From Fidelibacterota bacterium (GTDB lineage: Bacteria; Fidelibacterota; Marinisomatia; Marinisomatales; JABMOV01): DNA of 32,242 bases. The stretch covers positions 1 through 32,242 of the forward strand of contig JBHHUC010000024.1 in assembly GCA_046861395.1 (NCBI GenBank). Direction: 5' to 3'. Below are positions 1 through 18,906 of the stretch, one piece after another. The position numbers were made by a program, and so were the translations under genes. Below the pieces are notes generated by a model that worked only from the letters and a program-made list of their open reading frames with translations, was not told the DNA's origin and did not search any database. Position 1 is the first letter of the stretch. Each line of letters begins with the position of its first letter.

Positions 1-1097
1 AAAAATCCGATGGCAGCAAGACCATAAACCTTTGAATTAATTCCTTTATATGATAAACCATCAATGGGGCTGCGTAATATTTCAGCAATGACATAAAAGG
101 GAAGTGCCAGAATGATTATCTTGGCTTCAGGCAGAATTTCAGTTCGATCCAGACTGTACCATAATGTTAAGATTTTTCCGTTAAAGATATACAGGAATGC
201 GGCTATTATCATGGCGATCCCAGTTGTTATTTGTAATAATCCGGCCAGTGAATATCCTAACTTATCTTTTTGTTGTTGATGTTTGATTCCTGATACCCGT
301 GGCAACATAATGATACCGATGGGTCCCAGTATAAAAAGTAATAACCGAATCAGGCTCATATTGCCATTAACCAGGGCTACATCTTTATAGGTGGCCCACG
401 ATGAGGCTAAAATACCTGGGCCAGCCAATAGGATGAACTGGGAAATAAAACTTGGAAAACGCACCAATCCATATTTCATATATATTTTTATTCGCTCCAA
501 TTGGTAGTTGCCATACGGCAGACCCCGGTATAATAGGATCAGCAGGATTCCACTGAGGAGTGAATTCACAAGTCCAATTACGGCTAATACCTGTTGGATA
601 TCATCCGTGAAATTGACAATAATAACTGGAACGATGGCAGTGGCGGATAGTTGTAATAAACTGGCCCAGAAAAATTTATGCCGCCCTCTGTAGTGAGCAT
701 ACACGAAAAACTGCATACATATCCCAATGGTATAAAGACCGTAACCCAATACGTGGTTGATCTGAAAACCTTCTGTAAATCCGGCACGAATTAGCACTAC
801 AAACATGGCTATGGCCGGCAAAGTAAACAAAATAAATATTAAAACGGAATTGCGATAGACACTCTCCTCTGACTCGCGGTTTAAAAAATAGGGTATCCCA
901 ATATTCAGGCCTATCAGGAGAATGGATACAACCGTTGTTACCGTACGTTTAATCAACAGAAACTCACCCAATACTTCAATACCGAAAAGTCGTGCAATAA
1001 TGCCATTTAATAGAAAAACACCTGATAAAACAGCTACACCATTAACTGCAATAATTAAGTACTGCTGACCAAACGTATTTCTATACTGGGAACTCAT
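1..1097 (-). CDS. wzx: Oligosaccharide/O-antigen flippase (Wzx-like), 3'-truncated by the window edge
   Basis: Not in the ORF track because it runs off the edge. Manual translation from the ATG at 1097 gives MSSQYRNTFGQQYLIIAVNGVAVLSGVFLLNGIIARLFGIEVLGEFLLIKR...LLIGLNIG...YMKYGLVRFPSF. It is multi-TM, has the ARxxGxExxG N-terminal pattern of Wzx, and lies directly downstream of wzy. Confidence 0.8.
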   Translation of the reverse strand, partial: MSSQYRNTFGQQYLIIAVNGVAVLSGVFLLNGIIARLFGIEVLGEFLLIKRTVTTVVSILLIGLNIGIPYFLNRESEESVYRNSVLIFILFTLPAIAMFVVLIRAGFTEGFQINHVLGYGLYTIGICMQFFVYAHYRGRHKFFWASLLQLSATAIVPVIIVNFTDDIQQVLAVIGLVNSLLSGILLILLYRGLPYGNYQLERIKIYMKYGLVRFPSFISQFILLAGPGILASSWATYKDVALVNGNMSLIRLLLFILGPIGIIMLPRVSGIKHQQQKDKLGYSLAGLLQITTGIAMIIAAFLYIFNGKILTLWYSLDRTEILPEAKIIILALPFYVIAEILRSPIDGLSYKGINSKVYGLAAIGF

Positions 1098-1104
1098 TAC
1101 TATA

Positions 1105-2490
1105 TTATTTACGATTCTCAATCCAATAAAGAAAAATAACTATCAGAACTAAGCCCTTAGTAAAAAACAGTATAGTAAAATTTGAACTAAAAAAACTAAA
1201 TGTAAATAATGGAACACATACGGCAATCACTGTTATGTAAATGATATTCATGGAATAGTCAGCCGTCACTAAAATCTTCCGATAAAATAAATGACTGACA
1301 AGACCAATAATTGGTGTGGATAATAAAGGCCCTATATACCCGAAATCAGCCCAGAAGTTACCTAGATACATGGCATTGGCATTCCCGGTTGTAAAAGGGT
1401 CCTTCCACCATACCTTTGCCACATAATTTGAAATGGGAAAAGTTCCAAACTGACTCATCCAGGAAAACAATTGGGATGATCGTCCCCATAGGAAATCATG
1501 TTTTTCCGGAAAATATTGAAAATAGTAGGATAACACTTCACTGGGAACGATAATAAGCCGATTGAAATAAGACAAATAAATAACACGGAAAATATCTTCT
1601 CGACCATAGAATATGAAATAGGTAATCACCATCGGACCAGCTAAGACAGCAATGATAATTCCTATTATTCTAAGGGCATTCACTTTTTTCGCTTTTAAAT
1701 AATAATAAGCTGCTATAACTAGAATAACTGTGGCCAGCGGAGACTTTTCCAATGTCATTGTATTTACAAATAATCCAATCAGAAGATAGTTTATAAAAAG
1801 AATCTTATATGTTCTTTTCTGATACAGAGTACTTAAAACTAACGACCCTATAATACCAAAAGGAATGAATAAAGACCGTAACCAGTGAACTGCATATCTT
1901 TCTATCCGTGTAATTTGTAATGTCTTTAAGGCGTCTTCTCTTAAATAAAAGAATTTTGTAGAGTCCCCGGGGGTTTTTATTAATTCAAATAATGGGATCG
2001 TATCGGTACGTAACAAATATAAGACCAAAATACCTAAGCAGAGTGTAAGTAGTATGATCAGTAATTCATAAAATCGTTTATCCATATCCATTTTACGAAC
2101 AGCTTGTTTGAGGTCTATTAATTTCACCTGCTCAATGGGACGGATCTTTTGGCCAATAATTAATCCTAGAGGAAATAAGAAATAGAAAGAAAGTATGGAA
2201 ATAAAAAATGGGATCCGGCTGGGGTGTACAGATGCGCCCGCAATATATATCGAAGGAAGGGAAATAAAAATGGTGAATGTAAGTACCATTAGCGATGGTA
2301 CCGATAAATAATTTAATCCGGTAAGCCCAAATATAAAACGATACTTATAAACTACAAATTCATAACACAATAGCGCTGATAATATACTGATTGAATAAAA
2401 AATATAATCATCAGGTATCATCAATAATGAAGTAAGGATTAATAATGGAAGGGCTAATATAATGCCCTTGTCATAATTAATGAGTTGCAT
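1105..2490 (-). CDS. wzy: O-antigen/polysaccharide polymerase (Wzy-like)
   Basis: 461 aa, very hydrophobic with many TM segments, C-terminal GNFWADFGYIG motif typical of Wzy, AT-rich, located between wzz-like and wzx-like genes. Confidence 0.75.
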   Translation of the reverse strand: MQLINYDKGIILALPLLILTSLLMIPDDYIFYSISILSALLCYEFVVYKYRFIFGLTGLNYLSVPSLMVLTFTIFISLPSIYIAGASVHPSRIPFFISILSFYFLFPLGLIIGQKIRPIEQVKLIDLKQAVRKMDMDKRFYELLIILLTLCLGILVLYLLRTDTIPLFELIKTPGDSTKFFYLREDALKTLQITRIERYAVHWLRSLFIPFGIIGSLVLSTLYQKRTYKILFINYLLIGLFVNTMTLEKSPLATVILVIAAYYYLKAKKVNALRIIGIIIAVLAGPMVITYFIFYGREDIFRVIYLSYFNRLIIVPSEVLSYYFQYFPEKHDFLWGRSSQLFSWMSQFGTFPISNYVAKVWWKDPFTTGNANAMYLGNFWADFGYIGPLLSTPIIGLVSHLFYRKILVTADYSMNIIYITVIAVCVPLFTFSFFSSNFTILFFTKGLVLIVIFLYWIENRK

Positions 2491-3834
2491 TTAAGCTGAA
2501 CTTCCATACCAGCGAATTTTGAAATAATAATAATAAACGGAGAATACTAACGCAAATACGAAACCGATAATGCAGATCCGGGCCCGGGATGGTTTGAATT
2601 TTTTCTCAGGTTTTTTTCCGTAATCCAAAACCTGCAGGGTTGGTGTATTCTTGGCTTCCTTGATCTTGGCCTCTTCATATTGCTGGGTCAGAAACATGAA
2701 AATTTGGTTCTGGACTTCCAGTTGTCGAGTTAAACGGGCATATTCCAGACCCAAATCAGGGATAGCGCCAAATTTGGGTAATAAATAATCTTTTGATTTT
2801 CCTGTATTCAAATCATTCAATTGTTCGTTCAGTAATTCAATCTCACGTTTCAGATTTATCCGGTCGGGATGGTTCTCGGGTAAAGTCTGTCCCAAGACTT
2901 CCAGTTGCACCTGGTCGGCTAATATTTGTGCTTTTATGTTAGAAGCAATTTCAATGGCCGCCTTAGTCTGATCCTCCAGCGATACGGTATTATACTTTTT
3001 CTGAAAAAGATTGAGTCTGTTTTCTGCCGAAGACAAGTCGTGTTGATTCAGTTGATACCGTTTTTCAATGAATTCCCGGTTATTTTTCGCCTGTTCACTT
3101 TTCAACAGTTTATTAACTTCATCCAGTTTTGCAATGTATGTGTTTGCCACATTTTCTACCAGTTCTTTACAGTATTCCTCATCTTTTTCCGGATGAAACC
3201 AAGGTGTGGTTGCCGTAAACGCAATTTTTATGGTCCCTTCTTCCTGCAGTTCAACCGATGTATTTTCATTCAATTCTTCCAGGGCGTCTTCCAAATATTT
3301 GGCGTTATAAAAGTCCATCAAATCGAATTCATCAATGATGGCTTCCTGCACCGTACGACTATTCAGAATCGCAATGAATGTCATCCCCTGGGAATCGTTT
3401 CCGCCACCTATCAGATTGCCGAATGGCAGTGAAGATAGGGCCGCCGATAAATTTAATCCTGTATCGGATGAGGGTGGCATGATCACCGCCACCGAGCGAT
3501 ACGTCAGTGGCATGAGCAATGAGAAAATGACGGCCAAGACAGACATAATAAATACATTGCGGAATATTTTCCATCGAACTGTCCAGATAATCTGAAACAT
3601 TTCCATAATAGTCAATTCCTCTTTATCCGAAATGGTTGCATTGACCTTTTGACTCGTTATCTTGTCCTCATCCAGCACCCCGTATTTCTTCAGATCGGCG
3701 ATTCGGTTTCGCAATGTTTTTTCCGACAGTCCGTTTTCTTCCGCCACTCGTTTACGGGCTTCGGGATTATCGATGATCTCGGGGTTCAGCCGAACCAGTT
3801 CCAGTATTTTCTCTTCGTGGGGGGTCAGTTTCAT
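2491..3834 (-). CDS. Polysaccharide co-polymerase / chain-length determinant (Wzz/GumC-like) with an N-terminal HTH-like extension
   Basis: Wzz N-terminal TM region (EELTIMEMFQIIW...LLMPLTYRSVAVIMPP), long coiled-coil periplasmic region, GNVR-like segment (TPTLQVLDYGKKPEKKFKPSR) and second TM. No tyrosine-kinase domain. Residues ~1-55 look like an HTH. Confidence 0.85.
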   Translation of the reverse strand: MKLTPHEEKILELVRLNPEIIDNPEARKRVAEENGLSEKTLRNRIADLKKYGVLDEDKITSQKVNATISDKEELTIMEMFQIIWTVRWKIFRNVFIMSVLAVIFSLLMPLTYRSVAVIMPPSSDTGLNLSAALSSLPFGNLIGGGNDSQGMTFIAILNSRTVQEAIIDEFDLMDFYNAKYLEDALEELNENTSVELQEEGTIKIAFTATTPWFHPEKDEEYCKELVENVANTYIAKLDEVNKLLKSEQAKNNREFIEKRYQLNQHDLSSAENRLNLFQKKYNTVSLEDQTKAAIEIASNIKAQILADQVQLEVLGQTLPENHPDRINLKREIELLNEQLNDLNTGKSKDYLLPKFGAIPDLGLEYARLTRQLEVQNQIFMFLTQQYEEAKIKEAKNTPTLQVLDYGKKPEKKFKPSRARICIIGFVFALVFSVYYYYFKIRWYGSSA

Positions 3835-3835
3835 A

Positions 3836-4828
3836 TTATTTCGTGGCCGCTATGTAAGTTAAATAAATGGATGCAAAGGCCGTCACAATCTGCATCGTAC
3901 TAGCATTACCGATCAACCGGCTGCGAACTGTTTCCGGGACATAGATCCGATCGCCGGCCAGTATAATGGCATCCGGTCGGGAGGCACTAGAACGATTCTT
4001 GATGGTTGCCTTCGGCGCGGATCCGGATTCCTTGGCACCACCGGCCAGAGCAATATATTCCGCCAGCGTCAATCCCGGGATAAACTGATATGAACCGGGA
4101 TATTCCACAAAGCCCGTTACCCATACCGTGGACTTGATTAATTCATAATTTTTCAGGATCACCTCTTCTTTTTCAGCCAAAATCGGAATATGAATATGAT
4201 CCCCTTCCCTGATAACAGGGTTCTGACTCAAATCACCGGTTAACAGAAAAGCCTTCAATGATATGATGTTCTGGGATCCGTCGGCATGCGTGATCTGCAC
4301 CCGTTCGGGATCCGTAAAGGGCTCAAATCCGCCGCATTGATCAATCACATCCCAGACCCGTTGAGTTGCAAACACTGGGTAATCGCCGGGCAGCTTAATG
4401 GCACCGGTAACGGGAATAACAAATTGCCGAATATCCAACAACGACACACTGACTTTACTGTTCTTATACTGTTCCGTCACGGACTGCTGAATGTCATGAA
4501 TGGCCTGAGTCAACCGGGTTCCTCCGACCATGATTTTCCCAACGGACGGAATGAGAATATCGCCCCCGGGATTGACATAAAGCTGGAAAAACATGTGTGT
4601 CCCTGTAATGATATCAATGCCCAGCTTGTCACCGGGCCCCAAGACATAGATATCCGGGTTTACAGCTTTTTCCAGCGGAGTAGCCGGGACCGTCAGGGTC
4701 ATCTCCTCCATTCGTTCCGGTTCCGTTTCATTCTCCTGACGCAAGTCCTGACGCCCGAATTGTGGTGGAATATTTTGACCCACCAACAGTGTTAATCCTA
4801 AAATAACCGTAAGATAGATTGATTTCAT
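3836..4828 (-). CDS. Polysaccharide export protein, Wza/OPX-like with SLBB domains
   Basis: Signal peptide, YVLGPGDKL Poly_export motif, repeated SLBB motifs (VTGAIKLPGDY, VTGFVEYPGSY...YIALAGG), C-terminal amphipathic helix. Confidence 0.85.
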   Translation of the reverse strand: MKSIYLTVILGLTLLVGQNIPPQFGRQDLRQENETEPERMEEMTLTVPATPLEKAVNPDIYVLGPGDKLGIDIITGTHMFFQLYVNPGGDILIPSVGKIMVGGTRLTQAIHDIQQSVTEQYKNSKVSVSLLDIRQFVIPVTGAIKLPGDYPVFATQRVWDVIDQCGGFEPFTDPERVQITHADGSQNIISLKAFLLTGDLSQNPVIREGDHIHIPILAEKEEVILKNYELIKSTVWVTGFVEYPGSYQFIPGLTLAEYIALAGGAKESGSAPKATIKNRSSASRPDAIILAGDRIYVPETVRSRLIGNASTMQIVTAFASIYLTYIAATK

Positions 4829-5905
4829 TTATGGTGATCCATATTGGGATTGATAATATGCACGGTACGCTCCCGACCGGATATGTTCCCACCAGGATTC
4901 ATGCTCCAGGTACCATGCAATCGTGGTCCTGATGCCCGTCCGAAAGGTATGCTTCGGGGTCCACCCCAGTTCATTCCTGATTTTTGTGGCATCGATGGCA
5001 TAACGAAAATCATGTCCGGGACGATCCTTCACAAAATTGATTAATTCCCGGTAATGTGCCAAATGACCCGGTTTGACCTCATCCAGGATATCACAAATCG
5101 TTTCCACGATTTCCAGGTTGCGGATTTCATTGTTTCCACCAATGTTATACGTCTCTCCCACCGTGCCCATTTTAAGGACATGAAGGATGGCTTCACAATG
5201 ATCGGCAACATATAACCAGTCCCGGATATTGCTGCCGTCGCCATAGACCGGCAACGGTTTGTTTTCCAGACAATTGATAATCATCAGGGGAATCAGTTTT
5301 TCGGGAAACTGGTAGGGACCGTAATTATTGCTACAATTGGTAACCAGGATGGGTAGGCCATAGGTTCGGTGCCAGGCCCGGACCAAGTGATCGGACGCCG
5401 CTTTGGAGGACGAATAGGGCGAACTGGGATCATAAGGTGTTTGTTCTGTAAAAAAACCGGTTGCTCCCAGAGAACCATAAACTTCATCGGTCGAAACGTG
5501 GTGAAAGCGAAATCCTTTTTGTTCCTCCTCATCCAGAGACCGGTAATAGACCAGGGATTGTTCCAGCAAGGTATAGGTTCCCATAATGTTGGTTTGGATG
5601 AAGGCACCGGGTCCGGTGATGGAACGATCCACATGGCTTTCAGCCGCAAAATTCACCACCGTATCAGGGGAATAGGTGGAAAACAGTTCCGCCACCAAAG
5701 TGGAATTATTGATATCACCACGATGAAAGTGATACCGTTCCGACGACTCGAGTTCCGTCAGATTAGCCTGGTTACCAGCATAGGTCAATTTATCAAGATT
5801 AATAATGGTGGTTTCCGGGAGTTCTTCATGGATATAGCGAATGAAATTCGATCCAATGAAGCCGGACCCGCCGGTAACCAATATTGTGTTCAAACGTTTA
5901 GTCAA
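4829..5905 (-). CDS. rfbB: dTDP-glucose 4,6-dehydratase
   Basis: Motifs [37 protein letters not shown] and DRPGHDFRY. Confidence 0.97.
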
Positions 5906-6449
5906 AAAGCAAATCCTTCCGCTGGTCTTTCAGGACCGGTAATTCTTTATCCTTGGCTGAAATCCGAGGTGTGGCCGCTAAGGGCCAGGTAATAGCAAGG
6001 TCCGGATCATTCCAACGAATGCCGTATTCATCATCCGGATGGTACACGTCGGTACACTTATATTGAAAAATTGTCACATCAGTAAGGGAGCAGTAGCCAT
6101 GGGCAAACCCCGGTGGAATGTACAGCATACGATGGTTGTCGGCCGATAACTCCTCTCCCACCCATTGGCCGAAGGTAGGGGATGATTGCCGGATATCCAC
6201 GGCCACATCCCACACCACTCCCGCCACCACCCGTACCAATTTACCTTGGGGAAAGTAACGCTGATAATGCAATCCCCGCAAAACCGGTCCGCGGGACAGG
6301 GCTTCATTATCCTGGACAAAATCGATGGGCAAACCGGCCTGTTGAAAGCGCTCCAATTGGTAGGATTCGAAAAAATATCCTCGTTCATCTTCGTGGACTC
6401 GCGGTTCAATGATTAAAATGTCGGGGATGGCGGTGGGAATGATATTCAT
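5898..6449 (-). CDS. rfbC: dTDP-4-dehydrorhamnose 3,5-epimerase
   Basis: Motifs [33 protein letters not shown] and GFAHG. Confidence 0.97.
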
Positions 6450-7756
6450 GCCGTCCGACGTCCCACATTTTCAAAACGGAAACCGTGATCGTGCAAGGCT
6501 TGAACACTCAGAATATTCCGCGCATCCAGAACGGCCTTTTCCGCTGCCAACTCTCCCAGCCTTTCGAGATTGAGCCCACGAAACTCATTCCACTCCGTCA
6601 TGATGGCCACAGCCTGAGTTCCGGTTACTGCCTCCTCCCAAGAACGGCAGTATGTCAGGTTCGGGAAATGGCGGGCCATGGCATCATTGGCAATGGGATC
6701 ATAGGCTTGGACGTCCACCCCTTCCCTGACAAGTCTCTGGACCAAATAAAGCGCGGGAGATTCACGCACATCATCCGTATTCGGTTTGAAACTAAGTCCC
6801 AGTACAGCGACTTTTTTCCCCGCTTTATCCGGTCCCAATAGACGGAATAATTTTTCACACATCAATTGTTTCTGGTATTCATTAGCCCGTACGGCAGCCT
6901 CAATGGTCCGCAGTGCCACATCCTGTTCTACTGCCAGATGCACCAATGCCTTGGTGTCTTTGGGAAAACAGGATCCGCCAAAGCCCGGGCCTGGATGCAG
7001 AAATTTCGATGAAATGCGCCCATCGATTCCCATGGCCTTTGCCACCACATGCACATCGGCTCCTACAGCTTCGCAAAGATTGGCGACCTCATTGATGTAG
7101 CTGATCTTCAAGGCCAGGAAGGCATTGCTGGCATATTTGATCATTTCCGCCGTTTCCACATTGGTGTGTACCATGGGTGTTTCATTAATATATAGGGGGC
7201 GGTATACATCGCGCAATAATTCAAAAGCACGTTCACTGGTCGCGCCGATAATGACCCTGTCTGGTCTGAGGAAATCATTCACCGCTGCCCCTTCGCGAAG
7301 GAACTCAGGGTTGGAAACGTAATCAAACGTTTTATAGGGAGCCAGTTGTCTAATGGTTGCAATTATTTTTTTCCCTGTTCCTACTGGTACCGTACTCTTG
7401 GTACATATTATTTTATACCCGTTAAGTTCCCGTGCAATGGTTTCACAGACCTGGAAAACGGCCCGTAAATCGGCCGATCCGTCCTCCCCTTCCGGCGTAC
7501 CCACGGCAATGAAAACAATGCTGGCATCCCGGATGGACTGGGATACATCGGTAGTAAATGACAATCGCCCGGCTTCCACATTGCGCCGGATAAGTTGTTC
7601 AAGCCCGGGCTCATAAATTGGGATTTGTCCCTGGTTGAGTTTCTCGATTTTTTCGGCATCAATATCGACACAAACCACGTCATGGCCGAAGTCGGATATA
7701 CCGGCCCCAGTAACCAGGCCGACATAACCGGTTCCGATAAAGGTAATCTTTTTCAT
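6446..7756 (-). CDS. ugd: UDP-glucose 6-dehydrogenase (UDP-glucose/GDP-mannose dehydrogenase family)
   Basis: Motifs GTGYVGL, KSTVPVGT, SNPEFLREG, GFGGSCFPKD (catalytic Cys) and FKPNTDDVRESP. Confidence 0.95.
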   Translation of the reverse strand: MKKITFIGTGYVGLVTGAGISDFGHDVVCVDIDAEKIEKLNQGQIPIYEPGLEQLIRRNVEAGRLSFTTDVSQSIRDASIVFIAVGTPEGEDGSADLRAVFQVCETIARELNGYKIICTKSTVPVGTGKKIIATIRQLAPYKTFDYVSNPEFLREGAAVNDFLRPDRVIIGATSERAFELLRDVYRPLYINETPMVHTNVETAEMIKYASNAFLALKISYINEVANLCEAVGADVHVVAKAMGIDGRISSKFLHPGPGFGGSCFPKDTKALVHLAVEQDVALRTIEAAVRANEYQKQLMCEKLFRLLGPDKAGKKVAVLGLSFKPNTDDVRESPALYLVQRLVREGVDVQAYDPIANDAMARHFPNLTYCRSWEEAVTGTQAVAIMTEWNEFRGLNLERLGELAAEKAVLDARNILSVQALHDHGFRFENVGRRTA

Positions 7757-7775
7757 ATTTCACTTTCCATATAGC

Positions 7776-7781
7776 AAGTTA
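7776..7781 (-). promoter_or_regulatory. Putative -10 element (TAACTT) of the ugd-led polysaccharide operon
   Basis: Matches the TAAHTT hexamer found before four to five other operon heads in this window. The -35 match is poor. Confidence 0.4.
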
Positions 7782-7818
7782 AAAAATACAGGTGATGGGC
7801 CACTATTCTCCAAAGAAA

Positions 7819-9912
7819 TTATATAAAACCCAATAGTCTGCGAGCCGACCATTCCACCACTAGTACTAGGATCATAATGACCAGGACCAGCCAGTGTTCG
7901 GAAGGCGTAATTCTTTGTTTGATTTGACTGTGTAATATTTTTGGTGCGATTTCCTGGATCACAGCGGAGCGGTTTTCCCAAGGCTGATATTTCCCTCGGC
8001 TCACCCGGGCCATTTGTTTCAGCAACGGTTGATTGACAAAGACATTGTTGAGTTCAATCTGACTTTCCTCGACAAAATACTCACCCTTCTGATAAGTCGT
8101 GGTGGTTCCAACTTTCATCATAATTTCATATCGGTAATGTCCCGGGGCGGCGGCCCAGAATTGTCCCTCCCACCGATCTTTCAATGCATTATACTCAAAT
8201 TCCACCGAATGAATTTGCGTGCTATCCCGCCAGATGGCCATGGTTACGTCCGAGAAAGGGACACGGGAGCCACCCAGACGATTGCCGGAAACAAATATTT
8301 CCTCCCCTTGCTGGAATTGTTTCTTGTTCAGCCGGTAATATAGTTCCTGGTCCCCGCCTGTGCGCATGAGCCAGGCCCAGGTTCCCTTGAATATTTCCCG
8401 GACATCATTTTCCTTCTGAATGGCGATGGACCGGAAATACAAAGAATACATGTCCGGCGTGGTCCAGGCGGCACTCCGGAGATTTCCTTTTTCCTGAAGA
8501 CTGAGGATGGGTTGTCCGGTATGCCTGTCCTGAATGATGATTCGTGACCGGGGAGCTGTCAATGTCAGGGGCATCACCGGAACCAGGGGAGGAAAACTGG
8601 TGCCGGTCAAATGCTCCAAAGACACATCGTAGGCCGGCAATATTCTGATTTCAGGGAGGATTTTCACTTCCGATTCTTCCGTCAGGAGGGAATCGGGGAT
8701 ACTTCCTAATTCGGCCTGAATGAGAGGTAATATCGTTTTAGCCGTGGTCGGGGATAATCCGGGGCCATTTAACCAGAAGACAGCCGAAGACTGGGAAGCA
8801 ATCTTGCGGGCCAAAATACGCTGAGCCCGGATGCTCAGCGGACGGATGGGATAATTATCAAACAGGATTAAATCATAGGGTTTTTTCCAGAACGATTTCA
8901 TCCGAGTTTCAAAATTGGGAGAACTGCCGATAAATTGATCCACTTCCGTCCGACCCATTTCCTGTAACCATTGCTTCACCAGGGTCGTATTAAACGAAGG
9001 AACGCCGGTCATCAGCGCTACAGTATAACGGTCCTTGAGTACGGAAATTGAGAAATTCTGACGATTATTGGCCACATTTAATTCATCAGACAGGGAAGAC
9101 GCCGTTAGCTGGAAATTGATTTTCCCTTGTTGTTCCGGTTTGAAGCGGAAGGTGACCCGGTTCTGTGATCCATTACCCTGCAAATCTACAAATTTTGATC
9201 CCAGCAGCTTCTTCCCTTCCATCAAGGATATATTGATTCGTTCATTCACCGGTCCCACTCCGGATATGGTAACGGTAGCTTCCACATCTTCCCCTTTAAC
9301 GACGACAGTTGGAGCATCCACCGAATGAATTTTCACATCCACCAGGGGTGTTGTATCCCCGATGGCGATGGTGTAGCAAGGACCGGTCCTTCGGTCCAGT
9401 TCCGTCACGGGATCAAATCCCTGTGTAATCTGTCCGTCACTGATCAGAATGATACCGGCCATGCCGTGGGAAAACCGATCCTTCAGGGTGGCGATTGCTT
9501 TACTGATATTCGTGGCCGTACCCAAGCCGGAGATTTCTGTCCGTCCCGGTTCCAGGTCCCGCGAAAAGGAAAATGTCTCCAGGGTCAGTCCCTTATCCCG
9601 GAGTGTACGGGTCATTTCAGCAACACCCTGGTTGATCATAGCCGGTGAAATATTCTGATGATAGGCAATGGACAGGGAATTATCGACCAGTAATATCCAG
9701 GGCAGTTCCTCACTCCGGTTTATGACATTATGGATTCGCGGTTGCAGCAATAATATCAGGGCGGTAAGGACCAGCAGGATGCGCAGACCGAATAACCAGC
9801 GAATGGATGTCAGGGACCACAGGGGTCGCCAAGTCAGGAAAGTGACCACTGCAGCCAGAAAAAGAAGGACCCAGAATACAAGATCCGGCGAACGGAGAAA
9901 TTCAATCTGCAT
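7819..9912 (-). CDS. Membrane-anchored VWA-domain protein with Ig-like and GATase-like domains
   Basis: Likely start is the ATG at 9912 (MQIEFLRS), just after the tsaD stop; the longer ORF to 10023 overlaps tsaD. Two N-terminal TMs, MIDAS motif DNSLS...GTATNI...ISDG, a CARDB-like segment (ELNVANN), and a C-terminal TM ending EWSARR. Confidence 0.75.
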   Translation of the reverse strand: MQIEFLRSPDLVFWVLLFLAAVVTFLTWRPLWSLTSIRWLFGLRILLVLTALILLLQPRIHNVINRSEELPWILLVDNSLSIAYHQNISPAMINQGVAEMTRTLRDKGLTLETFSFSRDLEPGRTEISGLGTATNISKAIATLKDRFSHGMAGIILISDGQITQGFDPVTELDRRTGPCYTIAIGDTTPLVDVKIHSVDAPTVVVKGEDVEATVTISGVGPVNERINISLMEGKKLLGSKFVDLQGNGSQNRVTFRFKPEQQGKINFQLTASSLSDELNVANNRQNFSISVLKDRYTVALMTGVPSFNTTLVKQWLQEMGRTEVDQFIGSSPNFETRMKSFWKKPYDLILFDNYPIRPLSIRAQRILARKIASQSSAVFWLNGPGLSPTTAKTILPLIQAELGSIPDSLLTEESEVKILPEIRILPAYDVSLEHLTGTSFPPLVPVMPLTLTAPRSRIIIQDRHTGQPILSLQEKGNLRSAAWTTPDMYSLYFRSIAIQKENDVREIFKGTWAWLMRTGGDQELYYRLNKKQFQQGEEIFVSGNRLGGSRVPFSDVTMAIWRDSTQIHSVEFEYNALKDRWEGQFWAAAPGHYRYEIMMKVGTTTTYQKGEYFVEESQIELNNVFVNQPLLKQMARVSRGKYQPWENRSAVIQEIAPKILHSQIKQRITPSEHWLVLVIMILVLVVEWSARRLLGFI

Positions 9913-9914
9913 TT

Positions 9915-10904
9915 TCAGTCCAAACGCAAATTGGGAATAATATCGAAATCCAGAGGGGACTGCTGACCGGCCTTCAGTTTGATTTCCCCCAGATAGGAAA
10001 CCATGGCGGCATTGTCGGTACAATATTTGAAATCAGGGTAGAGCAAACGAACGGAGGATGGTAATCGGTCCGCTAGCGAGGCCCTCAGCCGTTTGTTCGC
10101 GGCGACGCCGCCGGCCACGACGGCGGTACTGACTCCGGCCGATTTTACAGCCTGGGACAGTTTATAGGTCAATACGTCCACTATGGCCTTTTCATAACTG
10201 GCGGCGATGGTAGCCAGATTGTATTGTTCCTGGTTTTTCGATTCTTTCATAAAATACAGCAGCGATGTTTTAAGACCGCTGAAACTGAATTCATAATTAC
10301 CCGGCTTCATAAAAGATCGGGGGAATTGAATGGCGTTTTCATCTCCCGTTTCAGCGGCCCGTTCAATGGCCGGTCCTCCGGGATATCCTAGGCCCAGAAT
10401 TCTGGCACCTTTATCAAAGGCCTCTCCGGCCGCATCGTCACGGGTATTCCCCAGCAGGACATAGTCCCCGACACCATTGACATTCCAGAGTTGAGTATGG
10501 CCTCCCGATACCAGCAGACAGATAAACGGAAATTCTAACGTGGGATCGGCCAAAAAGTTCGCAAAAATATGCGCTTCCAGATGATTGACTCCCACCACCG
10601 GCAGGTCCAATCCCAAAGCCAGACCCTTGGCGAACATGGCTCCTGTCAGCAGGGTTCCGGCCAGTCCCGGTCCCTGCGTGACGGCAATTCCCGATAGTCC
10701 AGATAAGGAAACGCCGGCCTGTTGCAAGGCCGTATCCACAATCGAATTCAACAGCCGTTCATGCTCCCGGGAGGCAATTTCCGGGACGACTCCTCCGAAC
10801 GAGGCATGAATCTCCTGGGAACTGATGACGCTGGCCAGAATCTGTCCTTTTGAGCAAACCGCCGCCGCGGTTTCATCGCAGGATGATTCTATCCCCAGAA
10901 TCAT
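9915..10904 (-). CDS. tsaD: tRNA N6-threonylcarbamoyladenosine transferase TsaD
   Basis: Motifs ILGIESSCDET, GGVVPEIASREH, HLEAH, SGGHT, DDAAGEAFDK and CTDNAAM. Confidence 0.97.
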   Translation of the reverse strand: MILGIESSCDETAAAVCSKGQILASVISSQEIHASFGGVVPEIASREHERLLNSIVDTALQQAGVSLSGLSGIAVTQGPGLAGTLLTGAMFAKGLALGLDLPVVGVNHLEAHIFANFLADPTLEFPFICLLVSGGHTQLWNVNGVGDYVLLGNTRDDAAGEAFDKGARILGLGYPGGPAIERAAETGDENAIQFPRSFMKPGNYEFSFSGLKTSLLYFMKESKNQEQYNLATIAASYEKAIVDVLTYKLSQAVKSAGVSTAVVAGGVAANKRLRASLADRLPSSVRLLYPDFKYCTDNAAMVSYLGEIKLKAGQQSPLDFDIIPNLRLD

Positions 10905-11881
10905 TAATTGATTTCCTTCGTGACCACCAATTCTACATTACGGGGCGATAAATCCTGCCAGCGAATTTCAGCCGGAACGGTGACTCGCGGCTCATAGAAT
11001 TGAACCCGACTGTTCCATTGTTCTCGGAAATTCAGAGTTACTTGAATATCCTCCGGGCTGATGGATTCAATCCGCCGAACCCCGCCGATGACAGTCAGGG
11101 CAACGGTGCGGGGATTTACGAAGACCCGCAACCCGGCTGGGATGGAATCCACCTGGACGGGAATATCACTGATGATCCGTTCACTGAGGGCCTGGATATC
11201 GATGGAATAATCCACCGTAGTGTGGGACATTTCCAGAATGGGCAGGGGATTATGCAGGGCAATCGTTCCCTGTACCAGTGCCTGCAGCCCGAGTAGGGTA
11301 TCCGGCTCCGTCTCAACATAATGAATGGCTTGTACTTCTTCCTTGGCGCCGGCAACCTGAATCGCCGCAGGTAGAAATGTAATGGGGCCGACTTGAATGA
11401 ACCCGGGTAATACTTCGGAATATATCTTGGAACGTACCGGGACATCTTTGACCAGGTATTCATCCAGTATAATGTGAACGTCCCTGGGATGAAGGACTTC
11501 GATATATTCAATGTCCAGCGCATTGGGTATGACAACTTTATGCGGATAAAGAGCAAAATATTCATTCAATACAAAATCATACTCCTCCGAAATGACTTCC
11601 AGGTCAAGTACCAGTTTGAAGTCTTCATAGAAATCCTTAAGTAACCAGGCCTTGAACAAGGCCCGCCCCGTGCCGCCAAACCGTACCCTGGCCGTTTCTG
11701 GGACTTTTTGTTTCAGGGCTTTTTTCGCGCTGAGATTGCGGGCTTCCAGCGGAACATCGATCACCAGTGTAAAACGGTCATCGCTGACGACAAATATCCA
11801 TAACAGGAACGCCAGCGCAACCGACCCGATACGCAGGAAGATTGACTGGCGTTCGATGAATTGAGAGAGCCGGGTTAACAT
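10904..11881 (-). CDS. YbbR/CdaR-like domain protein
   Basis: N-terminal TM (SVALAFLLWIFV) followed by repeated YbbR-type beta domains (P..V.V.G motifs). SD GAGGAGG upstream. Confidence 0.75.
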   Translation of the reverse strand: MLTRLSQFIERQSIFLRIGSVALAFLLWIFVVSDDRFTLVIDVPLEARNLSAKKALKQKVPETARVRFGGTGRALFKAWLLKDFYEDFKLVLDLEVISEEYDFVLNEYFALYPHKVVIPNALDIEYIEVLHPRDVHIILDEYLVKDVPVRSKIYSEVLPGFIQVGPITFLPAAIQVAGAKEEVQAIHYVETEPDTLLGLQALVQGTIALHNPLPILEMSHTTVDYSIDIQALSERIISDIPVQVDSIPAGLRVFVNPRTVALTVIGGVRRIESISPEDIQVTLNFREQWNSRVQFYEPRVTVPAEIRWQDLSPRNVELVVTKEIN

Positions 11882-11906
11882 ATTCCCCGAAACCTCCTCA
11901 CACTAA

Positions 11907-13808
11907 CTATGACTCGGATTCAGATTCAGCGTCGGCGTCGGTTGTTTCCGCCTCGTTGAGTCCTTCCGGTATTTCTATTTTCTGTGTAGCCGGCGCTTCC
12001 TGAGAGGCCAGATATTCCTTGACTTCGTCAACTGGTTTATCCGCCACGCTGTTACTACCCAGTTGATCCACATAAAGGACCACTTTCTTTTCATCCGGTT
12101 TGACTTCCATCACGTTACCCGAGATCTTTTCTCCCGGTTTGAAGTCACGGAGCAGGGATTTCCGTTCCCGCTTCGATCGTTTTCCAAACGGAATGATACC
12201 TTCAACATCATGCTCAAGCTGAACGATGATCCCCTTGTCCAGGACGCGTATAATATCTCCCGTCACTTCCTTGCCGGTTTCAAAATACTTAATCAATTCC
12301 GGCCAGGGATCGTCCACAACCTGCTTCAGTCCCAGAGATATTCGGCGACTGTCACGTGAAACCTCCAGCACACGGACTTCCACTTCTTGTCCTTTTTCCA
12401 GGATTTCCTTGGGATGGCGAACCACTTTCGTCCAGGATAAATCGGAAACATGGATCAGGCCGTCAATGCCTTCTTCCAGCTCAACAAAAGCACCGAACTG
12501 GGTCAGATTCATAACCCGGCCCTTGCACAAACTGCCAACCATGTATTTTTCTTCAATCTTATCCCAGGGATCGGGCAATAACTGCTTCACACCCAGGCTG
12601 ATCTTCCGCTCTTCCGTATCGATGGACAACACGACGGCATCAATTTCGTCGCCCATGGAATACAGTTCGGATGGATTCTTGATATGGCGTGTCCAGGACA
12701 TTTCCGATACATGGATCAGACCTTCCACACCCGGTTCGATTTCAATAAAGGCACCATAATTCGTCATGGAAACGACTTTTCCGGTTACCGTTTCGCCAAT
12801 GGGATATTTATCTTCCATATTTTCCCAAGGATGTGGTGTCAATTGCTTCAAACCCAGAGAAATCCGTTTTTTCTCTTCGTCATAATCAATCACTTTCACC
12901 GTCAGCGTTTCATCTAGTTTCACCAGTTCGCTGGGATGATTGACACGGCCCCAGGACAAATCGGTAATGTGGAGTAATCCATCCACCCCGCCCAGATCGA
13001 TAAAGACACCGAAATCAGTAATGTTTTTTACACGACCCTCCAGGACTTCACCCACCTTGATTTTGGAAAATAATTCTTCCCTCTGTTCTTTCAGGCTTTC
13101 TTCCAGAATTACCTTTCGGGAAACGACGACATTCTTCCGGGCTTCATTGAATTTTACAATTTTGAATTCCAGTTCTTTGTCCAAGTATTCGTCAAAATCC
13201 TGAATCGGTCGCACATCGATCTGACTGCCCGGCAGGAAGGCCTGAACCACGCCGAGGTCAACAATCATACCACCTTTGATGCGACGGGAAATGGTTCCGG
13301 TGATCAAAGTATCATTTTCATAAGTTTCCCGCAACTCATTCCAACGTTTCATGAAATCAGCTTTGGATTTGGATAAAATGGTGTTGCCGCTGCGATCTTC
13401 AAGATGTTCCAAATAGACGTCCAGTGTTTCACCAATTTTGGGTGGTTCACCTTCACTGAATTCCGAGCGGTCTATGATTCCTTCCGATTTAAAACCAATA
13501 TCAATTAATACTTCCGTATCATTCATACCGATCACACGGCCGGTGATGACTTGATTTTCGGATATATCATGAAATCCGGCCAGATATTTTTCCTGTATTT
13601 CTTCTGAGATTTCACTAGACTCCTGAGCATGGTCTAATTCATCCCGGGATACAACCCGGACATTTTCAAATATTGCCGGATCTAAATAATTCTTGGTGGT
13701 TTCGACTGCTGGTGCCGGTTCCGATGAAGCCTGATCGGCACTGACAGCGGTATCCTGGGATACGTTTGCCTCTTCAGCAATCATTTCCTGTTCTTTCGTT
13801 TCGCTCAT
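11907..13808 (-). CDS. rpsA: 30S ribosomal protein S1
   Basis: Six S1 repeats (IDIGFKSEG, AFLPGSQID, GLLHITDLSW, GLIHVSEMSW, GLIHVSDLSW); follows cmk. Confidence 0.97.
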   Translation of the reverse strand: MSETKEQEMIAEEANVSQDTAVSADQASSEPAPAVETTKNYLDPAIFENVRVVSRDELDHAQESSEISEEIQEKYLAGFHDISENQVITGRVIGMNDTEVLIDIGFKSEGIIDRSEFSEGEPPKIGETLDVYLEHLEDRSGNTILSKSKADFMKRWNELRETYENDTLITGTISRRIKGGMIVDLGVVQAFLPGSQIDVRPIQDFDEYLDKELEFKIVKFNEARKNVVVSRKVILEESLKEQREELFSKIKVGEVLEGRVKNITDFGVFIDLGGVDGLLHITDLSWGRVNHPSELVKLDETLTVKVIDYDEEKKRISLGLKQLTPHPWENMEDKYPIGETVTGKVVSMTNYGAFIEIEPGVEGLIHVSEMSWTRHIKNPSELYSMGDEIDAVVLSIDTEERKISLGVKQLLPDPWDKIEEKYMVGSLCKGRVMNLTQFGAFVELEEGIDGLIHVSDLSWTKVVRHPKEILEKGQEVEVRVLEVSRDSRRISLGLKQVVDDPWPELIKYFETGKEVTGDIIRVLDKGIIVQLEHDVEGIIPFGKRSKRERKSLLRDFKPGEKISGNVMEVKPDEKKVVLYVDQLGSNSVADKPVDEVKEYLASQEAPATQKIEIPEGLNEAETTDADAESESES

Positions 13809-14476
13809 TCCTTGGGTTTCCCTTTTGTTGTTACTGTTTGTATGATGAAATCAACTTGTTCATCAATGGTTAACGATGATGTATCGATCTCTATGGCATC
13901 CGCTGCTTTTTTCAGAGGACTGTGATCGCGGGAAGAATCTTTCTTGTCCCGTTCATTGATTTCCCGGATTAAGGTTTCCAATGACCGCGATTCGCCAATT
14001 TGGTTCAGATCGTTCAAACGCCTTCTGGCCCGTGTCGTCACGTCCGCGACAATGTAGAACTTCCATTCCGCATCAGGAAATACGACCGTACCGATATCAC
14101 GCCCTTCGATCACACAATTCTGTTCCCGCCCCATTCGCCGCTGCAGTTTAACCATCTCCCGCCGCACAACCGGAATCGCGCTGCAGGCACTGACACGGTC
14201 CGTTACCCGTTTGGAGCGAATGGCATCGGAAATATCCCTGCCGTTCACCCTCACAATTGTTTGTCCCGCCTTCGTCTGCAAGGCGATATCAAGTTCGGCG
14301 ACGGCCTTACTGACCTGCGCCACATCGGTAAACGGAATTTTCTGTTCCAACAAGGCATAGGTGACTGCCCGGTACATGGCACCAGTATCCAGGTAAGTAA
14401 AGCCCAGTTTTTGTGCCACCAGGCGGGCCGTAGTTGATTTGCCGGAGGCAGCCGGTCCATCTATTGCGATAATCAT
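13805..14476 (-). CDS. cmk: Cytidylate kinase
   Basis: Motifs IAIDGPAASGKST, LDTGAMYR and EGRDIGTVVFPDA. Start is the ATG at 14476 or the GTG at 14485. Confidence 0.97.
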   Translation of the reverse strand: MIIAIDGPAASGKSTTARLVAQKLGFTYLDTGAMYRAVTYALLEQKIPFTDVAQVSKAVAELDIALQTKAGQTIVRVNGRDISDAIRSKRVTDRVSACSAIPVVRREMVKLQRRMGREQNCVIEGRDIGTVVFPDAEWKFYIVADVTTRARRRLNDLNQIGESRSLETLIREINERDKKDSSRDHSPLKKAADAIEIDTSSLTIDEQVDFIIQTVTTKGKPKE

Positions 14477-14502
14477 CAAATTCACTTCTCAATAAGCCTG
14501 CG

Positions 14503-14531
14503 AAATTAATTGAAAACCATACAATTACCAA
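14503..14531 (-). promoter_or_regulatory. Putative sigma70-type promoter of cmk-rpsA (TTGGTA-N17-TAATTT)
   Basis: Both hexamers read directly from the minus strand in the rluB-cmk gap; same architecture as other operon heads. Confidence 0.55.
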
Positions 14532-14570
14532 CGCTTTAAGATGAAATAAAAGGGAGAATTCATGCCGGTC

Positions 14571-15293
14571 TTACCGGGTTCGGGTAGTTTTCCCCACCCG
14601 CAGCAGATTCGCCACTTCTTCTTTGGTCAGTTCCCGGTATCGACCCGGCGGCAGATCCCCCAGCATGATGGGGCCGAATTGGATTCGGATCAGGCTATAG
14701 AGTTTGATATGTAAAAATTCAAAAATACGGCGGATTTCCCGTTTTTTACCATGATGGAGACAGAGGGTTACCTGGGACCGTTTCTTGACTGTTTTTTGTC
14801 GAATAACCTCTGCCCGTCCAAAGGTATTTTCCCCGATAAAGATGCCCCGTTTAATCTTTTGCACGGTTGCGTCGGATAGCCGACCTTCAATTTCCGCCTG
14901 GTATATTCGGGGGATTTGATTTCGGGGATGCATCAGTTTATTGGCCAAATCACCATCATTGGTAACCAGAAGCAGACCTGTCGTATCCTTATCCAGCCGT
15001 CCAATGGGAAACAGACGCTGCGATCCCGGCAGCAGATCTAAAACTGTTTTCCGTCCCTGTGGATCCCGCATAGTGGTGATATATCCCGCCGGTTTATGCA
15101 GAAGGAGAACGACTCTGTTCTCATCCGGAGTAACGACCCGACCGTCATAAGCCACGATATCTCCCGGACGGACCTGGTAGGCCGGATTTGTCATGACCGA
15201 TCCGTTGACAGTCACCGTTGCTGCCTGAATCAATTTATCCGTCTCGCGTCGGGAACCCACACCACTGCGGGCCAGGTATTTATTTAAACGCAT
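14571..15293 (-). CDS. rluB: rRNA pseudouridine synthase, RluB/RsuA family
   Basis: S4 domain (MRLNKYLARSGVGSRR), HKPAG, catalytic GRLDKDTTGLLL; follows scpB. Confidence 0.85.
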   Translation of the reverse strand: MRLNKYLARSGVGSRRETDKLIQAATVTVNGSVMTNPAYQVRPGDIVAYDGRVVTPDENRVVLLLHKPAGYITTMRDPQGRKTVLDLLPGSQRLFPIGRLDKDTTGLLLVTNDGDLANKLMHPRNQIPRIYQAEIEGRLSDATVQKIKRGIFIGENTFGRAEVIRQKTVKKRSQVTLCLHHGKKREIRRIFEFLHIKLYSLIRIQFGPIMLGDLPPGRYRELTKEEVANLLRVGKTTRTR

Positions 15294-15843
15294 CGATTTG
15301 GTTTTCTCCCGGATCCGAGGCTTCCAGATCTTTTAAATCGGTTAATTTGGGCATATCGGAAAGTTTATTCAAACCGAAATACTCCAGAAACTGGGGGGTA
15401 GTGGCATAGAGCAGAGGACGTCCCGGACTGTTGGACCGGCCTTTAATCTGGATCAGCTTGCGTTGTAGGAGTGTTTTCAATACACCGCTGCAATCCACAC
15501 CGCGGATGGATTCAATTTCAAACCGGTTCAGGGGCTGTTTATAGGCAATGATTGCCAGGGTTTCCAGGGCCGCCGGCGTCAACACCAAACGACCGCTCTT
15601 TTTCAGTAGTCGTCGTATCCAAACATCATATTCCGGTCGCGAAATCAGACGGTAGCCATGGGCTACCTGTTCGATAAAAAACGCATGGTTGTCCGCACGA
15701 TAGCGGTCATTCAGTTGCGCAACGACATCGCTCAGTTGCGGGGCTTCCGATTCAAACACCAGATTCACTTGTTGTTGAGTCAACGGGTCGGACGCTGCAA
15801 AAAGCAGTGCTTCGACGATATTCTGTATTTCCTGTTCAGTCAT
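15280..15843 (-). CDS. scpB: SMC-Scp complex subunit ScpB
   Basis: Motifs VEALLFA, AALETLAIIAYKQP, IESIRGV and GRPLLYATTPQFLEYFGL. Confidence 0.96.
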   Translation of the reverse strand: MTEQEIQNIVEALLFAASDPLTQQQVNLVFESEAPQLSDVVAQLNDRYRADNHAFFIEQVAHGYRLISRPEYDVWIRRLLKKSGRLVLTPAALETLAIIAYKQPLNRFEIESIRGVDCSGVLKTLLQRKLIQIKGRSNSPGRPLLYATTPQFLEYFGLNKLSDMPKLTDLKDLEASDPGENQIDAFK

Positions 15844-16568
15844 GATTTGTGAGCCACCAGGACCAGTTCCAGATCGTCAAATACCCGGGATTGGATAACG
15901 CGGATTATGGCCTGGCGCATGAGGTCCAGAATGGCCAGGAAGGTTACCACCATTTCCAGTTTAGAACCCAGTTTATTCATTAATTGGGAAAAGGTCTGCC
16001 TTCCATCTTCATTAAACCCAGCTAAAATGATTCTGCGTTGATCCTCAAGGTTAATATTCTCCCGCACCAATTCATAGGACTGAATAACCGGCATTCGTTC
16101 CATGGCGTGTTTGAAATAACGAGCAATTTCGTACAAACCGATATCCTTCAAATATACACTCGGATCATCTTCGCCCGGCGGGGCCGGATTAACCATCGAT
16201 CGGGGAAAATAAGGGCTTCGTTCTTCCAGGATGCCGTCCAGTTGCTTGGCAGCCTCCTTGTATTGCTGATATTCCAGTAATTTTTGCACCAAGTCCTGGC
16301 GCGGGTCCTCGAAGTCTTCATCCTCCCCGGCGGTAACCGGCAACAGCATTTTCGCCTTGATACGCATCAAGGTGGCGGCCATGTGGATGAATTCACCAGC
16401 ATTGGCCAGGTTCAGTTCCTTTATCCGGTCCAGGGTTTCCATGAACTCAGCCGTGATCCGTGCAATGGGAATATCGTAGATATCAATTTCATCCCGGCGG
16501 ATGAAGTACAACAGGAGGTCCAGAGGTCCCTCGAAATTCTCCAACTGTATTTGATATGTCGGCCTCAA
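15840..16568 (-). CDS. scpA: Segregation/condensation protein ScpA
   Basis: Motifs FEGPLDLLLYFI, DIYDIPI, EFIHMAATLMRIKAKMLLP and TFLAILDL. TTG start overlaps the trpS stop. Confidence 0.96.
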   Translation of the reverse strand: MRPTYQIQLENFEGPLDLLLYFIRRDEIDIYDIPIARITAEFMETLDRIKELNLANAGEFIHMAATLMRIKAKMLLPVTAGEDEDFEDPRQDLVQKLLEYQQYKEAAKQLDGILEERSPYFPRSMVNPAPPGEDDPSVYLKDIGLYEIARYFKHAMERMPVIQSYELVRENINLEDQRRIILAGFNEDGRQTFSQLMNKLGSKLEMVVTFLAILDLMRQAIIRVIQSRVFDDLELVLVAHKS

Positions 16569-17530
16569 TAATTCAACCCTATATTGGCTCGGGCTCGCTG
16601 CAGGTATTCATCCGCAACCTGGGCAGCTTTTTCGGCCCCTTGCCGGCATATTTCCGTCACATAATCTTCATGGGTAACCAGATATTCCCGACGTTCCCGG
16701 AAGGGTGCGAAGGTAGTCCAAACCCTTTCAAACAATTCCTTTTTAACATCCCCGTAACGTAAGCCCGGTGCGCGAAAGCGATTTTCCAGTTCCTCGCGGT
16801 CGGATTGATTCAGAAACAAGGCATAAAGCTGAAAAAGAGGTGAGTCGATAGGTTTTGGTTCCTCCACCGGCGTACTGTCGGTTACGATGGACATAATTTT
16901 TTTACGGATCACTTTTTCCGGAGCAAAGAGTGGAATAACATTGCCATAGGATTTACTCATCTTCTGCCCGTCCGTACCGGGAATCAATTGCGTGGTCAGA
17001 TCAATATCCGGTTCCGGAATAATAAAGGTTTCTCCAAAAATCTGATTAAACCGGCTGGCAATATCCCGGGTCATTTCCAGATGCTGTTTCTGATCTTTGC
17101 CCACCGGCACAATTTCTGCCCCGAAACAGAGAATATCGGCCGCCATCAAAACGGGATAAGTAAATAATCCCACGCTGGGGGTAATCCCTTTTGCCAGTTT
17201 ATCCTTGTAGGACGTGGCTCGCTCCAGAAGCCCTGTCCCGGTTACATTATTCAGGATCCAGGTCAGTTCAGTGACCTGCGGGACATCACCCTGTACCCAA
17301 AATGTGGTAATGTCAGGATCCAGTCCCAGCGCTAAAAAGTCCATGACAGCCTGGCGCGTATTTTCCTGTAATGCCACCGGATTATGGATGGTCGTCAGGG
17401 CATGATAATTGGCAATAAAACAGAATAAATCATTTTCTTCCTGATACCGGATCATCCGGGACATCATGCCGAAATAATTTCCCAAATGCAGGGAACCGGA
17501 CGACTGAATCCCACTTAATACTCGTTTCAT
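16565..17530 (-). CDS. trpS: Tryptophan--tRNA ligase
   Basis: HLGN (HIGH motif), YPVLMAADIL, VPVGKDQKQHLE and KMSKS. Confidence 0.97.
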   Translation of the reverse strand: MKRVLSGIQSSGSLHLGNYFGMMSRMIRYQEENDLFCFIANYHALTTIHNPVALQENTRQAVMDFLALGLDPDITTFWVQGDVPQVTELTWILNNVTGTGLLERATSYKDKLAKGITPSVGLFTYPVLMAADILCFGAEIVPVGKDQKQHLEMTRDIASRFNQIFGETFIIPEPDIDLTTQLIPGTDGQKMSKSYGNVIPLFAPEKVIRKKIMSIVTDSTPVEEPKPIDSPLFQLYALFLNQSDREELENRFRAPGLRYGDVKKELFERVWTTFAPFRERREYLVTHEDYVTEICRQGAEKAAQVADEYLQRARANIGLNY

Positions 17531-17545
17531 GTTTTTCTTTCCACC

Positions 17546-18830: not shown

Positions 18831-18858
18831 TGGGTATTCCCTATGGAATTGAAGCGGG

Positions 18859-18888: not shown

Positions 18889-18906
18889 GGTGGAAAGCCT
18901 TTATGG

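Follow-up and report, generated by a model that had tools for sequence, protein, structure and literature searches.

An Lrp-like helix-turn-helix head on a Marinimicrobia polysaccharide co-polymerase, and a candidate operator within its own operon

The locus and the fusion protein

The window, by which we mean the whole 32,242 nt of contig JBHHUC010000024.1, carries at its left end a polysaccharide operon on the minus strand, and this operon is cut by the end of the contig. The features on which the analysis draws are as follows.

7757..7818, minus strand: 62 bp gap before ugd, a possible promoter of the sugar genes on sequence resemblance
6446..7756, minus strand: ugd, UDP-glucose/GDP-mannose dehydrogenase family (Pfam), the first sugar gene, holding both palindromes described below
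5898..6449, minus strand: rmlC, dTDP-4-dehydrorhamnose 3,5-epimerase (Pfam)
4829..5905, minus strand: rmlB-like NDP-sugar 4,6-dehydratase (PF16363, PF01370)
3836..4828, minus strand: wza-type polysaccharide export protein (Poly_export and SLBB), directly upstream of the fusion
3673..3834, minus strand: N-terminal three-helix helix-turn-helix (HTH) of the fusion, residues 1-54, with an Lrp/AsnC-like fold (AlphaFold2) and its recognition helix at 38-51
3622..3672, minus strand: variable linker of the fusion, residues 55-71 (8% mean identity among 30 representatives)
2491..3621, minus strand: co-polymerase body of the fusion (Pfam, model, fold match and hydropathy)
1105..2490, minus strand: wzy-type oligosaccharide repeat unit polymerase (TIGR04370, E 1.4e-18, over the cut-off)
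3..1121, minus strand: open ORF cut by the contig end, with no Pfam match, a putative wzx-type flippase

The name rmlB is used because the gene adjoins rmlC, and the ORF at 3..1121 is probably a flippase, as judged from its hydrophobic sequence and its position. The placing of wza upstream of the fusion is the same in most related loci. The gap at 7757-7818 resembles a Bacteroidetes-type TTTG/TAnnTTTG promoter; a sigma-70 scan found no sites within it, and across positions 1-19300 the same scan returned 38 sites against 33 +/- 5.5 in shuffled sequence, which is no excess. Beyond the gap, the minus strand of 7819-10023 encodes a 734 aa ORF that has no Pfam or NCBIfam match over the cut-off and is kept between tsaD and ugd throughout the phylum.

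The ORF at 2491-3834 encodes 447 aa and begins with the N-terminal extension quoted in the first-pass annotation, in which it was read as an HTH domain fused to a Wzz co-polymerase. Pfam places Wzz (PF02706) at residues 72-169 (E 1.9e-8) and GNVR (PF13807) at 365-439 (E 3.2e-9), both over the cut-off. The body runs from Wzz and a first membrane helix (around residues 89-107) through a long periplasmic coiled coil to GNVR and a second membrane helix (around 418-438). This is the build of a polysaccharide co-polymerase, with a Wzz N-terminal domain, a periplasmic coiled coil and two membrane helices near the ends, encoded beside a Wzy polymerase (TIGR04370, downstream) and an export protein (Poly_export, upstream). 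The best Foldseek match to the body is Wzc within the Wza-Wzc complex (9r64, E 6.6e-14), so the assignment to the superfamily stands, although the fold is nearer to Wzc than to the O-antigen Wzz proteins. Wzc has a C-terminal tyrosine kinase, which the fusion does without: in both Pfam and the model the chain stops a few residues past the second membrane helix, as had been proposed from the first reading. Nor did any gene in the genome of the window (G000) exceed the TIGR01007 kinase cut-off, with four weaker matches lying elsewhere in an assembly that is 94% complete and in which this operon is cut by a contig end.

Translation is predicted to begin at the ATG at 3834, one base after the wza stop codon. 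The extension is carried by 115 of the 120 homologues listed, from 406 found, and the internal Met77 is poorly kept, being methionine in just one of 30 representatives; these observations agree with the earlier view that the extension is real.

Wzc (PCP-2a), kinase-less GumC-like proteins, WzzE and FepE (PCP-1) and KpsE (PCP-3) have the Wzz/GNVR domains, the two membrane helices and the periplasmic coiled coil in common with the fusion, and the arrangement of wza upstream and wzy downstream is found here as well. We found, however, no described member with an N-terminal HTH. A literature search, which most subscription journals lay outside, found no description of an HTH-Wzz fusion.

Fold, conservation and distribution of the head

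The AlphaFold2 model of the head has a mean pLDDT of 89, with helices at residues 5-16, 18-21, 24-33 and 38-51, and consists of a three-helix bundle with a turn glycine and a recognition helix, as in the HTH superfamily. Nine of its ten best structural matches are Lrp/AsnC proteins and the tenth is the Lrp-like AhbA/B (rmsd 1.7-2.5 Å over 51-55 residues, identity 14-26%), with Z scores of 6.4-7.4, values that are middling by the tool's own note (Z below 8) and, at around 7, say nothing on function. Against LrpA the TM score is 0.71. In Pfam, residues 1-60 by themselves reach only matches below the cut-off (HTH_24, E 0.005; HTH_11, E 0.009). HTH_24 is matched at E<=0.01 by 50 of 66 homologous heads, and a profile of the 66 aligned heads matches Csa3 (E 1e-6) and GerE (E 0.002) in the PDB. 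Residues 1-54 can thus be described as a three-helix HTH joined to the N terminus of a co-polymerase, in keeping with the original claim. The description of the domain as winged has to be dropped: there is no beta wing, nor indeed any strand, in the models, and the sequence past residue 54 is a variable linker. The Lrp/AsnC ligand domain, PF01037, gave no match, its place after the head being taken by the linker and Wzz.

Among 30 representatives below 70% identity, mean identity is 62% in the head, 81% in the recognition helix, 8% in the linker and 43-58% in the Wzz parts; the recognition helix, whose conservation the first-pass annotation had suggested checking, is therefore conserved well above the body. 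Residues E38-I45 are invariant in all 66 aligned heads, 64 of which come from loci found using this head as the query. At L41, R42 and R44 all six codons are in use. This free variation places the conservation at the level of the protein, and a cause at the DNA or RNA level was rejected on the same grounds. The net charge of the head is only +1. One homologue, P0046, has a decayed recognition helix in a head that can nonetheless be recognised (43.5 bits). Its body shares 73% identity with that of L144, an HTH-less locus of another family, and its locus was not found among 70 + 61 genomes. Atlas feature searches gave only scores below 0.9.

Several known systems combine some of these properties. 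Lrp/AsnC proteins are the nearest fold (Z up to 7.4) and their octamers carry several heads, but the fusion is without the ligand-binding domain and has an extra short helix at 18-21. PutA is a trigger enzyme in which a membrane function and a DNA-binding domain regulating its own genes share one polypeptide; PutA leaves the membrane to bind DNA, which the fusion, as an integral protein, cannot do. The ToxR head is an OmpR-type winged helix, whereas that of the fusion is Lrp-like. In overall build the fusion resembles a transmembrane regulator, having a DNA-binding-type domain and a membrane helix within one chain; ToxR, TcpP and CadC, covered by one survey of such regulators, are likewise membrane proteins that combine an outer domain with a DNA-binding-type domain on the cytoplasmic side (PMC10269533). 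The main text of the survey and nine supplementary files contain neither Wzz nor GNVR. The fusion differs from these regulators in that its membrane part is a structural subunit of an export machine and its putative target is its own operon. The fusion thus belongs to the co-polymerase superfamily while having the build of a transmembrane regulator, and is neither a Wzc, nor an Lrp protein, nor a winged HTH.

Of 401 genomes of the phylum Marinimicrobia, 103 carry the head; all but two of these belong to the order of the window, and all but two have a single match. The genomes with more than one, G351 (C21, C57) and G162 (C167, C41), have two matches each, which may be assembly duplicates. The close Wzz body is far commoner, being present at E<=1e-15 in 275 of the 401 genomes; 40 loci with this body were examined, and the 37 from outside the HTH set are without the head, most of them with wza directly upstream. 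Of 72 bacterial loci with a head, 68 have it fused to a Wzz body, three stop at a contig end and one (L058) is a broken, inverted copy. Similarly, 77 of 80 metagenomic loci kept from 341 are fused and the other three stop at a contig end, with no stand-alone head seen. The genome data thus indicate that the HTH-Wzz fusion is real and is kept across one order of Marinimicrobia.

Searches for other forms of the head yielded rejected candidates. Although 112 short proteins match it, most of the 13 inspected resemble, at the protein level, truncated or frameshifted starts of wzz; P0236/P0016 may be a split gene; and seven pattern matches to viruses gave no confirmed case. Between wza and wzz in five HTH-less loci, supposed decayed remnants of the HTH scored at most 1.3 bits, which is unconvincing.

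The head is not tied to any one body, and sequence comparison indicates that it sits on unrelated ones. On a tree of 89 Wzz bodies (132 reduced at 75% identity; a quick tree with SH-aLRT as its only support) the HTH label needs 14 changes, at least seven of them forced by starred branches. When L037 is compared with five relatives, wza is 62-72% and the head 72-83% identical, but the body only 20-23%, which implies that the head acquired a different body by in-frame fusion. The reading frame is kept through every such swap, and the linker at residues 55-71 is presumably the crossover zone. Across 30 loci, head identity correlates with that of the host genes tsaD (rho 0.56) and ybbR (0.51) rather than with its own body (0.04) or wza (0.10), as expected if the partner of the head sits on the host chromosome. 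Between close relatives, however, the head often follows wza over tsaD (in L036 and L070, tsaD is 90%, wza 38% and the head 57% identical), and in the group of loci with a serS/wza arrangement it does not track serS (0.09, n=20).

The same head is present in archaea, in six of 22 genomes of one genus of Poseidoniales, with no other strong match in 301 genomes of the order. Five of the head loci show an archaeal context of Poseidoniales type, and the protein recurs in many assemblies, some of them on contigs longer than 100 kb. Here the head is fused in frame to a protein of about 35 residues with one hydrophobic helix, which also occurs headless in the same place in other members of the genus and in outgroups (28 of 30 loci, six of them with the head). 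This small protein is conserved behind a membrane gene (L096:5774-6076, L115, L119, L109, L125, L126 and L130), and in the one genus the forms with and without the HTH carry different leaders and are scattered over the host tree. On a tree of a neighbouring gene the six head-bearing genomes need six changes, two of them forced by starred branches, and sister genomes may differ, L109 having the head and L123 not. The archaeal heads group together (96) and are nested among the bacterial ones, with weak support for their exact placement, so that transfer from bacteria is likely.

A palindrome associated with the head

Reading of the intergenic DNA first drew attention to an eight-letter palindrome, GCCCGGGC. 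The window holds just two exact copies, both within ugd:

7603..7610, unstranded: candidate operator 1, GCCCGGGC, 146 nt into ugd, in codons for E-P-G-L
6983..6990, unstranded: candidate operator 2, GCCCGGGC, 766 nt into ugd and 620 bp from operator 1

The second of these is less conserved, and is also present in the GC-rich HTH-less loci L199 and L204. The gap at 7757-7818, which the first-pass annotation had put forward as the place to begin looking for binding, has no copy.

The comparison of upstream sequence took in those 52 HTH loci for which 4.5 kb or more was available; shorter loci, the five archaeal loci and L106/L107 were left out. The exact palindrome occurs upstream in 48 of the 52, as against nine of 34 HTH-less loci; the remaining four HTH loci have only ACCCGGGC, with the recognition helix unchanged. 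In total the 52 loci contain 73 sites where 2.4 are expected, and 40 HTH-less loci contain 15 where 6.4 are expected, eight of these being in the GC-rich family f21. When all 8-mers shared by 25 or more of the 52 loci were screened, GCCCGGGC ranked first, with a P value that is overstated because kin among the loci are not independent. It is also present in all 28 metagenomic HTH loci with at least 4 kb upstream, an overlapping and related set.

The position and coding context of the palindrome vary. In ugd it is found as E-P-G-L at 146 nt or A-R-A at 309 nt, and in wza as A-R-A 51 nt in or G-P-G about 200 nt in. Hence it is written in three reading frames or lies between genes, and it is seen also inside genes with a GC3 of 0.11-0.30. 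The P-G codons of operator 1 are CCC GGG in 29 of 36 HTH-locus ugd genes but in none of 16 HTH-less ones, and all seven HTH loci whose ugd has other codons have a site elsewhere in the locus. In the serS/wza arrangement each of the 20 intergenic regions holds the palindrome, which in 18 is followed after a constant, short spacing by a promoter-like block; a second copy lies within wza in 18 of the 20.

Two further features were observed around these sites. An extra GGGC half-site lies a few bases upstream of the palindrome in L052:8087-8103 and several related loci, where it sometimes makes up a second, spaced palindrome. Ahead of wza, the serS/wza loci share a conserved leader some 130 nt long that contains invariant blocks (L065:8148-8275 and 19 related regions); it had no Rfam match in three loci, its consensus structure was unsupported and it is absent from G000.

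Loss of the head provides a further comparison. Family f12, within the order of the window and the best control available, keeps the operon and has the body in eight of eight cases but the HTH in none of eight, and the site is absent from all five of its loci (one of which is too short for ugd). In six f6 genomes ugd is retained although the wza-wzz block is missing, and in five of the six ugd has no site, but here the loss took the entire block, so that the HTH is not singled out as the factor. Among individual assemblies, G119 has both sites on a contig ending in rmlB, G380 and G227 have no site on contigs that stop in wza, and in G148 and G012 the exact site is absent from the HTH-bearing contig. 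The link between head and site is thus one of co-occurrence, with few independent contrasts (the loss in f12 and about a single gain within the order), and it makes GCCCGGGC the likely target of the HTH head.

Genome-wide, GCCCGGGC is depleted in G000, with 20 copies against 78.5 expected, and the depletion is specific to the exact 8-mer. The other 18 sites in that genome are scattered among unrelated genes, and a wider regulon was rejected. In G189 and G244 the single GCCCGGGC of the genome sits 2.8 kb upstream of the HTH. Several other HTH genomes show no depletion (sites against control: G259, 86/45; G220, 118/82; G164, 34/6; G230, 42/3). Counts in the archaeal genomes with the HTH show neither excess nor lack, and no exact copy lies in the archaeal loci fetched around the head gene. 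A near-match, GCCCGGGT, precedes a TATA-like box in two of six alleles with the head and also in two without it. When 30 of the 65 sites in the six archaeal HTH genomes were compared, three pairs were shared and none was group-wide.

Possible roles of the fusion

A DNA-binding-type head on an export protein, together with a rare palindrome at the start of the gene cluster, suggests that the genes of the export machine may be controlled, or kept close, by the machine itself. The reading we favour, at a probability of roughly 0.55, is that the fusion is a co-polymerase of a Wzx/Wzy/Wza system with a second function at the membrane, the sequence-specific regulation of the operon that encodes it. 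That such a protein could be a tethered regulator had been proposed in the first-pass annotation; the co-occurring palindrome lends the idea indirect support, at sites within ugd and not in the gap originally named. A co-polymerase ring is made up of about eight subunits, each with its N and C termini in the cytoplasm, and a ring of the fusion would therefore display several HTH heads. Two heads could bind the two halves of GCCCGGGC, a two-fold symmetric site that suits a pair of heads, and one ring might hold two sites a few hundred bases apart, spacings of 390-620 bp being suited to a loop. Most sites either fall within the first gene, 50-300 nt from its start and downstream of a likely promoter, or else flank that promoter, from where a roadblock or loop would be likely to lower transcription; these positions suggest negative feedback on the operon. 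Transcription would then fall when rings suffice, or when rings are not engaged with Wza or Wzy, and such feedback could keep the number of export machines constant; binding of DNA by the heads would also hold the locus at the membrane. In the serS/wza group, whose site closely precedes the promoter-like block, activation is possible as well as repression, since activators too can bind there. The fullest form of this proposal, which we advance tentatively and at a little under even odds, is that the ring of the export machine itself regulates the operon, its heads clamping codon-embedded copies of GCCCGGGC and so counting or sensing machines without a soluble regulator, by means of a portable head that remains in place while the Wzz bodies behind it are exchanged and that has also passed to a different membrane anchor in Marine Group II archaea.

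Other readings account for part of the same evidence. The HTH might bind a conserved cytoplasmic protein, with the palindrome read by an unrelated soluble factor. RodZ is an envelope or division protein whose HTH binds another protein, MreB, whereas for the fusion the co-occurring palindrome points to DNA. The same distinction applies to SepH, which also combines an HTH with an envelope or division role and binds FtsZ through the HTH motif (PMC7968930). A protein partner would fit with the low net charge of the head, with the way in which the head tracks host genes, as an interface with a host protein would, and with the archaeal copies, which keep the helix without a linked site. We nevertheless regard it as unlikely: f12 keeps the operon but has neither head nor palindrome, which with a separate factor needs a parallel loss; the residues that never vary belong to the recognition helix, and transcription factors provide the nearest folds; and the helix persists in an archaeon, a host in which conservation of a bacterial partner protein is improbable. 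It is rather unlikely, too, that the head binds GCCCGGGC mainly as an anchor, keeping the operon at the membrane next to the existing machine, with new Wza, Wzz, Wzy and Wzx thereby made and inserted at a single spot. The location of most sites within coding sequence, at varying promoter distances (50-770 nt into ugd or wza), would suit an anchor, as would the second, archaeal host of the HTH being likewise a membrane protein and the fused state of every metagenomic head not cut off by a contig end. Yet the intergenic site of all 20 serS/wza loci, in 18 at its fixed short distance before the promoter-like block, is in a regulatory position, and coupled translation and insertion would tether a locus without a dedicated site.

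The palindrome might instead be a restriction-modification or methylation site, its depletion reflecting avoidance, with the HTH binding DNA non-specifically or elsewhere. GCCCGGGC is the recognition sequence of SrfI; its depletion in G000 is confined to the exact 8-mer and is patchy across lineages, and G000 has one match to an N6/N4 methyltransferase. This is distinctly improbable, given that avoidance leaves unexplained why the site is retained, with turnover, at one operon across families; moreover, neither CCCGGG nor CCGG appears in the main text of a marine methylome paper (PMC8919816). Bodies are exchanged directly behind the head, most relatives in other orders do without one, and P0046 has a decayed helix. 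All this could be taken to mean that the extension is a conserved stretch simply carried along where a sugar-gene cassette with exchangeable contents has its fixed edge, or that its start was mis-called. Such an explanation is largely refuted by the combination of invariant amino acids with freely varying codons, and, with the frame preserved in every swap and the internal methionine not conserved, we give it very little credence.

If the fusion is indeed a regulator of its own operon, the chromosome would be informed directly, by a machine that builds the envelope, of how many such machines there are or in what state they are. Kinase and two-component feedback routes are known for capsules, and the feedback envisaged here would be more direct than these. 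A domain and its likely 8 bp site can both be named, in an abundant uncultured marine group, which would offer a natural case for the open question of how a protein fixed in the membrane locates its target on the DNA. In the archaeal graft, the same head is reused on another membrane anchor, across domains of life.

Two other arrangements were seen in passing. In several f6 genera (L273, L274, L275, L276, L279 and L281) the rmlB-wza-wzz block is missing and ugd-rmlC runs into serS. Within the window, on the minus strand at 17546-18830, an HNH endonuclease gene overlaps the end of an SH3-NlpC/P60 peptidase gene, and this pair precedes trpS-scpA-scpB-rluB-cmk-rpsA.
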